From assembly GCF_050320075.1 (NCBI RefSeq), contig NZ_CP190018.1: 64,000 bases of DNA; one strand, given 5' to 3'. The stretch's first letter is position 1, and each line of letters opens with the position of its first letter. Source of the stretch: Escherichia coli. Lineage in GTDB: Bacteria > Pseudomonadota > Gammaproteobacteria > Enterobacterales > Enterobacteriaceae. A model generated the notes under the pieces. The model was not told the DNA's origin, did no database searches, and saw only the letters and a list, made by a program, of their open reading frames with translations. Shown here one piece after another: positions 15,533 through 49,052 of this stretch. The translations under genes and the position numbers were made by a program.

Positions 15533-18685
<3,153 letters not shown>

Positions 18686-18704
18686 TACAACGTGTAATCA
18701 CAAA

Positions 18705-18726
18705 GGCCGCGCAAGCGGCCTTTTTT
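18705..18726 (+). terminator. Rho-independent terminator after acrB
   Basis: GGCCGC-GCAA-GCGGCC hairpin followed by TTTTTT. Confidence 0.75.
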
Positions 18727-19230
18727 ATGCATAACCGACGAACATTAAGGAGTCATTGAACCACCAACTCAGGATCTCATACGAAAACCAGTATTAACCT
18801 CGCATAAAATTCATAAAAAATACTGATTGTTAGTTAATTTATATTAAGTAGCGCTAATAAATTTAATAATCCATAATCATTTAGAGGCTATTCTTAATTA
18901 TTTGCGGTAATTCTTTATTCATTCCTCGGTTATTACGTCATATTCAGAGCAATCCTGGTATTAGTGTCACCAATTTCATCTGGCGATAATCCTGAAATGT
19001 TATGAATAGTTCGAGCAGACTGCTTTTACCTACTGCGGGTTAGTGCTAGTATGAAAAAATGAGTCCTGTCCCGATTCCTTCCTAATTGTAATTTTTCGTA
19101 ATAATGCGATGAAAACCTGCAAAGAGTGGCTTATAGTTAAGCTAACAAACGAGAGGGCAAGTCCAGGTCAGTAAGTTTTTTCCATCCCGAAAGGTGTCCG
19201 TTAGTTCAACCACTAAGAAGGGGACGCGTT

Positions 19231-19605
19231 ATGGATGAATACTCACCCAAAAGACATGATATCGCACAGCTTAAGTTTCTCTGTGAAACCCTGTATCATG
19301 ACTGTCTTGCAAACCTTGAAGAAAGCAATCATGGCTGGGTTAACGACCCAACCTCGGCGATCAACCTCCAGTTGAATGAACTGATTGAGCATATTGCGAC
19401 CTTCGCACTTAATTACAAAATTAAGTATAATGAAGACAATAAGCTCATTGAGCAGATCGACGAATATCTGGATGACACCTTTATGTTGTTCAGCAGTTAT
19501 GGTATTAATATGCAGGATCTTCAGAAATGGCGGAAGTCAGGTAATCGACTATTCCGTTGTTTTGTCAATGCGACGAAAGAGAATCCTGCGAGTTTATCTT
19601 GTTAG
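19231..19605 (+). CDS. tomB: Hha toxicity modulator TomB (YbaJ)
   Basis: 124-aa [27 protein letters not shown]... recognised as TomB; immediately upstream of hha. Confidence 0.9.
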
Positions 19606-19630
19606 AATTATTACAACCATGGGTAGAAGT

Positions 19631-19849
19631 ATGTCCGAAAAACCTTTAACAAAAACCGATTATTTAATGCGTTTACGTCGTTGCCAGACAATTGACACGC
19701 TGGAGCGTGTTATCGAGAAAAATAAATACGAATTATCAGATAATGAACTGGCGGTATTTTACTCAGCCGCAGATCACCGCCTCGCCGAATTGACCATGAA
19801 TAAACTGTACGACAAGATCCCTTCCTCAGTATGGAAATTTATTCGCTAA
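19631..19849 (+). CDS. hha: Haemolysin expression modulator Hha (H-NS co-regulator)
   Basis: 72-aa [75 protein letters not shown], read from the tail of the 154-aa track ORF. Confidence 0.93.
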
Positions 19850-19926
19850 TAAATAATTCGCTTTCGGAGCTATAACCGGCTGTTTATTAAGAATTTTATA
19901 CTTTTTCGCCATGAAGACGTACCCTA

Positions 19927-19942
19927 TGTGATCTTTATCACA
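19927..19942. promoter_or_regulatory. Candidate CRP-type site (TGTGA-N6-TCACA) upstream of maa
   Basis: Perfect palindrome TGTGATCTTTATCACA about 80 bp upstream of maa start. Confidence 0.4.
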
Positions 19943-20020
19943 CAGATGTAATGGGAACGTTCTCTTCACTGACTTTTCGTCTTACTGTGTTGCCGCATTT
20001 TCAGCAACCGGAGGTCAGTA

Positions 20021-20572
20021 ATGAGCACAGAAAAAGAAAAGATGATTGCTGGTGAGTTGTATCGCTCGGCAGATGAGACGTTATCTCGCGATCGCCTGCG
20101 CGCTCGTCAGCTTATTCACCGATACAATCATTCCCTGGCGGAAGAGCACACATTACGCCAGCAAATTCTCGCTGATTTATTCGGTCAGGTGACAGAGGCT
20201 TATATTGAGCCAACGTTTCGCTGTGATTATGGCTATAACATTTTTCTCGGCAATAATTTTTTCGCCAACTTCGATTGCGTGATGCTTGATGTCTGCCCTA
20301 TTCGCATCGGTGATAACTGTATGTTGGCACCAGGCGTTCATATCTACACGGCAACACATCCCATCGACCCTGTAGCACGTAATAGCGGTGCTGAACTGGG
20401 GAAACCCGTCACCATCGGTAATAACGTCTGGATTGGCGGACGCGCGGTCATTAACCCTGGTGTGACCATTGGTGATAACGTCGTGGTAGCCTCAGGTGCA
20501 GTTGTCACAAAAGATGTCCCGGACAACGTTGTCGTGGGCGGTAATCCAGCCAGAATAATTAAAAAATTGTAA
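20021..20572 (+). CDS. maa: Maltose O-acetyltransferase (hexapeptide-repeat acyltransferase)
   Basis: 183-aa ORF with left-handed beta-helix hexapeptide repeats ([31 protein letters not shown]). Confidence 0.93.
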
Positions 20573-48593: not shown

Positions 48594-49052
48594 TCTGTAA
48601 ATATTATTTAGCTGTAGTAATCACTCGCCGTAATTATTACGGCTAAATAAACATCAGCATCGCTTATTAATATTTGTTCTTTTGTGCGGCTTAGCGTCTG
48701 GAAATTATTGACGCCATTTATGAATTCTATTTTTCTTACACGATTCAGCTAATGAGTCTTTATTTTCTCACTACCCAGTTGTCACCTTAATGATAATTAT
48801 TTGTTAAATAATTGTTTTATTTCGCATTGGTTATACCAATTGCCCGCCCAGACTCCTTCTGCACTCCCCTTTTGTTATAACGCCCTTTTGCAACAGCTTC
48901 TTAAAATCAACCTGATATGTTTTGCAACATATGTGACCTGGAAGCCAAATCCAAGTAACAGGAATTTAATCATGTTTACAGTAATGTAACCTTCCCGTAA
49001 AATGCCCACACACTTTAAACGCCACCAGATCCCGTGGAATTGAGGTCGTTAA

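Follow-up and report, generated by a model that had tools for sequence, protein, structure and literature searches.

The gap between acrB and tomB in Escherichia coli is most likely an ordinary intergenic control region with a short tomB 5' UTR

The DNA between acrB and tomB of Escherichia coli is most likely an ordinary intergenic control region and not a long leader of the tomB-hha pair, as had been proposed in an earlier note on this sequence. What the gap contains has for the most part been documented already, and we obtained no evidence of a concealed RNA or protein gene. The anatomy of the gap, its pattern of conservation, the transcription start site (TSS) of tomB and the in-vitro binding of spacer DNA by RNA polymerase and H-NS come from the present analysis or from published data; how CpxR, H-NS and Rcs act at the tomB promoter, and in which direction, is what we infer. 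Hha acts together with H-NS as a co-repressor of virulence genes and of genes acquired horizontally, and its toxicity is counteracted by TomB. The segment studied here is part of a 64-kb window, by which we mean the whole stretch of DNA that was analysed, and corresponds to acrB-tomB-hha-maa-ylaC of E. coli in an orientation that is reversed compared to K-12. From the acrB stop codon to the tomB ATG the gap measures exactly 545 bp (18686-19230). The gap of K-12 MG1655 has the same length of 545 bp and contains no RefSeq annotation. The length of about 545 bp and the AT-richness given in the earlier note are thus correct, but the acrB terminator, which had been placed before this stretch, sits within it. 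The features of the region are compiled in Table 1.

Table 1. Coordinates of genes, known elements and candidate elements in and around the acrB-tomB gap (positions in the window).
Feature	Position	Strand	Basis or remarks
acrB	15536-18685		stop codon borders the gap
acrB intrinsic terminator, AAAGGCCGC-GCAA-GCGGCCUUU + U-run	18702..18726	+	fold and conservation
Escherichia-only fast-evolving filler	18729..18803 (~75 bp)	.	alignment gap in >90% of other genera
AT-rich core, 23% GC	18804..18940	.	motifs AAATTCATAAAA, CTkATTG, TTTATwTT and AATAAr-N3-TATAAT-like; conservation about 0.55-0.67
RcsB/RcsAB-box-like palindrome, weak in E. coli, TCAGAGCAATCCTG	18944..18957	.	alignment and consensus match
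conserved CTAAC-N3-NTGAAW element	18997..19007	.	E. coli ATG at 19002-19004
candidate second promoter, extended -10, TGCTAGTAT	19044..19052	+	hypothetical
invariant block TAATTGTAATTTTTCGTAATA	19083..19103	+	contains the CpxR-box-like direct repeat GTAAT-N5-GTAAT, 19088-19102
tomB-hha sigma-70 promoter	19109..19137	+	-35 ATGAAA 19109-19114, 17-bp spacer, -10 TATAGT 19132-19137; promoter scan
tomB 5' UTR, 87 nt	19144..19230	+	TSS A19144; CCATCCC 19182-19188; hairpin TTAGT 19201-19205/ACTAA 19212-19216; Shine-Dalgarno AGGGGA 19219-19224
tomB	19231-19605	+	Pfam YbaJ, E 1e-65; RefSeq annotation
hha	19631-19849	+	Pfam HHA, E 8e-40; RefSeq annotation

Transcription of tomB starts close to the gene. 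A single TSS has been mapped for E. coli tomB at position 480019 of U00096.2, with a UTR of 87 nt, in a study that covered few growth conditions (Kim et al. 2012, PMC3415461 Table S1). The upstream sequence published there, which ends in GATGAAAACCTGCAAAGAGTGGCTTATAGTTAAGCTA, maps the TSS to A19144 of the window, 7 nt after TATAGT. The orthologous promoter of K. pneumoniae likewise has one TSS and gives a 97-nt UTR (PMC3415461 Table S1). With the TSS at A19144, the ~415 bp between terminator and promoter are upstream DNA and not leader, and the description of the gap as a long leader has to be given up. The promoter matches the consensus at nine of twelve hexamer positions (ATGAAA-17-TATAGT) and both hexamers are kept across genera. 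A genomic SELEX study with RNA polymerase lists the same hexamers for a constitutive RpoD promoter in front of tomB-hha (PMC3946193), and an RNAP/sigma-S ChIP-seq peak converts to ~19048-19243 (PMC4447067). Within the AT-rich block, the threshold of the promoter scan was not reached, and manual pairing of the TATAAT-like with the TTG-like motifs of the block gave the wrong spacing for sigma-70 on both strands. No opposite-strand TSS is listed for 479900-480499 in the part of the Cappable-seq table that covers the K-12 + strand up to 1.09 Mb. The earlier note had named a single promoter near tomB, with neither further transcripts nor protein binding in the leader, as the finding that would speak against it. 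The single promoter near tomB is what we found, but protein binding upstream of it is documented. The expectation that this DNA holds regulatory elements was well founded.

The upstream DNA stands out by its composition and has been retained throughout the family. The gap has a GC content of 37.6% compared to 51.5% for the window, and the 137 bp of the AT-rich core are at 23.4%. The AT-richest 200 bp of the 64-kb window are found at 18804-19003, and just 0.2% of all 200-bp segments have a GC content of 30% or less. Of 5426 complete E. coli genomes, 5424 contain the region. A TomB alignment was used to retrieve 80 loci, one genome per species, and in 74 of these the acrB-tomB gap could be delimited. 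These 74 other Enterobacteriaceae species share the acrB-tomB-hha synteny, with gaps of 435-559 bp and 35-40% GC, and inside every one of the 75 gaps (the window and the 74 other species) there is a 130-bp tract with 21-32% GC. Both the E. coli genomes and the synteny bear out the earlier statement that the DNA belongs to the core genome and is not an insertion, with the qualification that 18729-18803 occur in Escherichia only. This filler is present as a single copy in each E. coli genome and is more variable than its flanks, 949 genomes having 90-95% identity. We considered it as a repeat or a remnant of a mobile element and rejected this because it is single-copy in every genome.

A MAFFT alignment of the 75 gaps is a mosaic. 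Conservation is seen in the terminator and in both promoter hexamers, to a moderate degree in the AT block and partly in the 5' UTR, and the block at 19083-19103 is nearly invariant. Further short conserved islands are located at 18941-18957 and at 18997-19007. The latter is the CTAAC-N3-NTGAAW element, in which conservation of the TG is 95% or more while the first base of the triplet can be A, G, T or C. Between genera, a large part of 18960-19080 resists alignment. The terminator is formed by a 9-bp stem with a GCAA loop (GGCCGC-GCAA-GCGGCC) followed by T6 (U6 in the transcript) and has a predicted folding energy of -16.5 kcal/mol (z = -3.8). In the alignment of the 75 gaps, conservation of its stem and T-run is 95% or more, and C. 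amalonaticus carries one compensatory pair (GGTCGC/GCGACC). A scan with a terminator consensus missed the acrB terminator.

The nearly invariant block, whose identity is close to 100% across all genera in the alignment, contains a direct repeat, invariant over 74 species, that spans -56 to -42 relative to the E. coli TSS and lies directly upstream of the poor -35. The consensus box of CpxR is GTAAA-N5-GTAAA, as found for example at cpxP, degP, yccA and yebE. The repeat of tomB agrees with this consensus in eight of ten bases, both half-sites being GTAAT. In the 64-kb window, GTAAW-N5-GTAAW occurs once, at 19088-19102, with 0.32 occurrences expected, and about 65 loci have GTAAT-N5-GTAAT at an identical offset. 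The CpxR-type box is also found in Cronobacter, and it is near-identical in Erwinia and Pantoea, where acrB is not the neighbour of tomB-hha. With its direct repeat, 10-bp periodicity and adjoining weak -35, the tomB promoter resembles CpxR-activated sigma-70 promoters. It differs from promoters of the cpxP type in its GTAAT instead of GTAAA half-sites and in the outcome of CpxR ChIP-exo in E. coli, in which tomB is absent from the direct targets (PMC7657598). Both tomB and hha are CpxR targets in RegulonDB, and tomB is a member of the CpxR iModulon (PMC7657598). The orthologous ymoB-ymoA operon of Yersinia provides a parallel: its promoter is shifted by CpxR~P, EMSA and reporter data put the CpxR motif 56 bp in front of TSS2, the proximal start and the same -56 offset as in E. 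coli, and the 5' UTR has about 100 nt (PMC13353760). Unlike E. coli with its one TSS, Yersinia starts ymoBA transcription from another mapped site as well, 82 nt farther upstream (PMC13353760). A LolCDE inhibitor induces tomB 5.9-fold and also induces cpxP, rcsA and cps genes; since rcsA/cps and cpxP are induced together, the response of tomB cannot tell Rcs from Cpx.

For the AT-rich tract, the earlier note had suggested binding by H-NS and Hha. The acrB-tomB spacer indeed carries an 'HNS' mark in genomic SELEX tables, which report binding in vitro (PMC3946193), and the composition of the tract agrees with the suggestion, but the gap shows no enrichment of the high-affinity H-NS motif TCGATAAATT: its single match there has two mismatches and falls on the spacer of the CpxR box. 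The tract is similar to other H-NS-bound DNA upstream of promoters in that 137 bp have 23% GC and carry the SELEX mark in front of an operon that encodes Hha, a partner of H-NS. Unlike typical H-NS regions, it contains no high-affinity nucleation motif and is core-genome DNA that was not horizontally acquired. One in-vitro mark and the composition point to binding of H-NS, and the tract may serve as an autoregulatory platform for H-NS/Hha. Among the forms taken by the motifs of the block are AAATCATAAAA, CTTATTG, GTTTATTT and AATAAG-N3-TATAAT. We compared the AT-block motifs by eye with sites of IHF, Fur, PhoP, ArcA and OmpR and found no convincing fit. An action of PdhR in the gap was rejected as well, as the SELEX peak and an 8/14 box are located inside acrB at ~18218-18234.

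The island next to the AT-rich core contains a palindrome that resembles operators of the Rcs system. The RcsAB box has the consensus TaAGaatatTCctA and the general RcsB box reads TN(R)GAN4TC(Y)NA; operators of this kind are found at wza, rcsA and Erwinia amsG. Compared with TAAGAATATTCCTA, the orthologous palindrome reaches at least 11 of 14 matches in 65 of the 75 gaps, versus 6% of Markov shuffles, and in most gaps it precedes the CpxR box by 159-187 bp. Such a far-upstream position resembles that of the cps/ams boxes. The palindrome of Kluyvera ascorbata is TAAGAATATTCCTA itself and equals the RcsAB-box consensus at 14 of 14 positions; variants are TAAGAATATTCCTG in Salmonella, TAGGAATATTCCTA in Enterobacter and Lelliottia and TAAGAATATTCTTA in Raoultella. 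It is absent from Cronobacter and Mangrovibacter. As a positive control, the regions upstream of K-12 rcsA and wza gave 10/14 matches each, which we take to be authentic RcsAB boxes. The sites of Salmonella, Citrobacter, Enterobacter, Klebsiella, Kluyvera, Kosakonia and others resemble RcsAB operators with 11-14 of 14 matches, more than upstream of rcsA and wza in E. coli. Unlike RcsAB operators, the copy of E. coli, TCAGAGCAATCCTG, matches at only 9 of 14 positions; wherever it deviates from that of Salmonella, the general RcsB box has an N. In the whole 64-kb window there is just one RcsAB-type site with at least 11/14 matches. In the literature, TAAGAATATTCCTA co-occurs with the term 'RcsAB box' in PMC4325325, and a search of the searchable literature returned no report of Rcs control of tomB/ybaJ. 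Judged by sequence, a putative RcsAB-like box that is present in sister genera and has decayed in Escherichia would be the sole, modestly new lead of this study.

Several other explanations of the gap have to be weighed. The leader could extend to roughly 170 to 350 nt if a second, condition-specific promoter were located upstream of the CpxR box, either at 19044-19052 or in the AT tract. We regard this as unlikely, although 30% of gaps, versus 4% of shuffles, have an extended -10 with a score of at least 6 located 41-51 bp in front of the CpxR box, and the spacing of about 85 nt predicted for E. coli is close to the distance between TSS1 and TSS2 of Yersinia (PMC13353760). The enrichment of the extended -10 is limited to the clade of Citrobacter, Salmonella, Klebsiella and Raoultella, and the element is absent from Enterobacter and from three of the four other Escherichia species, and the -35 that would go with it is poor. 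SELEX with the RpoS holoenzyme gave a second peak near 18709, which would favour an additional promoter, but its resolution is coarse, and for both E. coli and K. pneumoniae one tomB TSS has been reported (Kim 2012, PMC3415461).

Quite improbable, too, is a 5' UTR that acts as a structured translational switch, in which CCAUCCC would mask the Shine-Dalgarno sequence GGGG(A)UG in a thermometer-like manner or under the control of an sRNA or protein. The idea draws on the conserved elements of the UTR, CCATCCC and AAGGGGA, of which CCATCCC hardly varies and in most genera is the complement of GGGAUG, and on the link of Hha and YmoA to thermoregulation. RNAalifold on 42 UTRs paired just three CCC:GGG positions, all invariant and with no covariation; because these pairs never vary, they are uninformative on structure. 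In E. coli, where the sequence concerned is GGGGAC, the pairing probability between CCATCCC and the Shine-Dalgarno sequence is about 0. According to the partition function, the overall pairing probability of the Shine-Dalgarno sequence is 0.75 for native sequences versus 0.69 for shuffles, and we therefore rejected CCATCCC as an anti-Shine-Dalgarno element. The E. coli UTR is no more stable than its shuffles (MFE z-score -0.38). The 5-bp hairpin before the Shine-Dalgarno sequence has some support, being paired to 86.5%, with UA-to-GC changes in 11 sequences that probably go back to one or two events. A conserved structured motif, for which the earlier note had proposed a covariance analysis across Enterobacteriaceae, was not convincingly visible in the RNAalifold analysis of the UTRs.

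An unannotated gene for a small RNA or a small protein in the gap, a possibility raised by its length and its conserved islands, appears extremely unlikely. An Rfam scan of 18400-20200 with a permissive E-value yielded no match at its gathering score; the best one, uxuA, had 22.9 bits versus the required 66.8, and the weak matches were centred on the terminator. The Cappable-seq table, in its K-12 + strand part, gives no support for an antisense transcript, and K-12 is unannotated here. No terminator-like end was detected within the gap by a scan, the same scan that missed the acrB terminator. As to a protein, all gap ORFs of at least 10 codons were compared over five Escherichia species; each is broken in at least three of the four other Escherichia species, so that none is conserved even within the genus. 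The conserved NTG at 19002 might point to a start codon, and in E. coli an ATG at this position opens a 13-codon ORF, but it has no Shine-Dalgarno sequence, and neither its length nor its sequence is conserved: the peptides that follow the NTG range from 11 to about 40 codons and are unrelated between genera. At 18756-18797, AAGGAG is followed by a 13-codon ORF with a TTG start. The small RNA and the ORF suggested by the earlier note thus both lack support in these data.

Conversely, the upstream 360 bp could be a mostly non-functional spacer, with AT-richness and length as side effects, for instance of a mutational bias acting on untranscribed DNA that separates a terminator from a promoter. 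This fits the fast evolution of the 75 bp confined to Escherichia and the poor alignability of 18960-19080, and insertions appear to be tolerated: strain Nord58 carries an IS1 in the AT tract, at 18864-18872, and a transposon insertion in the gap is also on record. We nevertheless consider it an unlikely account, as a length of 435-559 bp and an AT-rich tract have been kept in 75 species where the flanks of the islands no longer align, and discrete islands are conserved at fixed offsets.

Returning to an ordinary control region as the preferred reading, we envisage the following layout. The acrB terminator would insulate tomB-hha against read-through from acrAB. The ~360 bp behind it, for which no transcript is mapped, comprise the Escherichia-only filler, the AT tract and conserved islands of a protein-binding type. 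One sigma-70 promoter at the end of the gap starts transcription at A19144 and gives rise to the 87-nt 5' UTR. Its poor -35 may be boosted by CpxR~P bound to GTAAT-N5-GTAAT, which would tie tomB-hha to envelope stress, and the AT-rich tract may act as a platform of H-NS, possibly of H-NS/Hha, for basal repression. A box of the RcsAB type, located ~200 bp in front of the TSS in most of the sister genera, could add an Rcs input there; this site is weak in E. coli. Only tentatively do we extend this to a spacer that works as a conserved integrator of Rcs and Cpx signals, in which a candidate RcsAB/RcsB operator ~200 bp upstream of the TSS and the CpxR box would be set against H-NS/Hha silencing nucleated on the AT tract; we find this possible but doubtful.

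The main outcome of this study is a correction, and it adds no new annotation beyond the promoter, the TSS and the CpxR site that databases already contain. Sensing of the environment by the tomB-hha operon has a bearing on the regulation of biofilm formation and virulence. If the spacer did integrate Rcs and Cpx signals, tomB-hha and, via Hha, the H-NS regulon would respond to both. The Rcs site would then have drifted to a weak state in Escherichia, beside a lineage-specific insertion of 75 bp, and the input would have been rewired compared to Salmonella, Klebsiella and Enterobacter. A functional RcsAB-type box would link the Rcs envelope-stress system to silencing by H-NS/Hha and would represent a clear case of lineage-specific loss of a regulatory input.

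After the 200 bp at 18804-19003, the window's next AT-richest stretches of this length have 29% and 30.5% GC (Table). A scan of 18500-20100 with a consensus terminator model returned 0 sites, although the acrB terminator is clear; since the scan missed this terminator, its negatives, taken alone, should not be trusted.

In strain Nord58 (locus L082, NZ_CP139846.1) an IS1 element of 768 bp sits inside the AT-rich tract, flanked by a 9-bp target duplication, TAATAATCC; apart from IS1 the locus is 100% identical to the window, and the insertion places the upstream islands and the tomB promoter 0.8 kb apart. Strain Br_112_kylling (L089, NZ_CP182371.1) has lost the 3' end of acrB, the entire gap, tomB and the first hha codons, and its annotation passes from a truncated acrB pseudogene directly to an hha of 60 aa.

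Within the Escherichia-only segment, a good Shine-Dalgarno sequence, AAGGAG, is followed after 4 nt by a 13-codon ORF starting with TTG (LNHQLRISYENQY). It lies upstream of the mapped tomB TSS and is disrupted in all four other Escherichia species compared. PdhR is reported to control tomB-hha; its box (AAcgGaatcgACCAgcT, 8/14 match) is located about 450 bp within the acrB coding region, and the tomB TSS lies over 900 bp downstream of it.

Features and their window coordinates
Feature	Position
PdhR box	18218-18234
Br_112_kylling deletion (corresponding interval)	~18500-19660
acrB terminator	18702-18726
13-codon TTG ORF	18756-18797
IS1 site in Nord58	18864-18872
TTCGCA-18-TATAAT, in tomB	19402-19431
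hha TSS, 115 nt upstream of hha	19516
hha TSS, 16 nt upstream of hha	19615
AT-rich stretch, 30.5% GC	48636-48835
AT-rich stretch, 29% GC	63687-63886

In Erwiniaceae (Erwinia, L083, 1004-1357; Pantoea, L086, 1001-1354) tomB-hha does not adjoin acrB and is preceded by an ORF of 117 aa without a Pfam match; in Erwinia the CpxR-like box, GTAAT-N5-GTAAT in the window, starts within the stop codon of this ORF (CTGTAATTTTTAGTAAG). The acrB-tomB gap of Mangrovibacter (L085, 655-1500) measures 846 bp, and here the -10 region (CTTATAGTTAA) is retained despite a degenerate CpxR-like repeat (GGAATTTTTACACTA).

A number of database entries, each about 201-205 aa long (P0005, P0008, P0010, P0026, P0027, P0039, P0046, P0048 and P0077), combine YbaJ (TomB) and HHA domains and look like TomB-Hha fusions. 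As tomB and hha stand in different frames in the window, 25 nt apart, such fusions require an indel together with loss of the stop codon; otherwise the two-domain proteins are artefacts of assembly or gene calling.

Transcription start site profiling has placed two hha starts upstream of the gene in E. coli (Kim 2012, PMC3415461). TTCGCA-18-TATAAT, a strong promoter-like sequence (10/12), is also present inside tomB; K. pneumoniae starts hha transcription at this place, 170 nt ahead of the gene. The hha gene has internal starts of its own, so Hha can be made without TomB.
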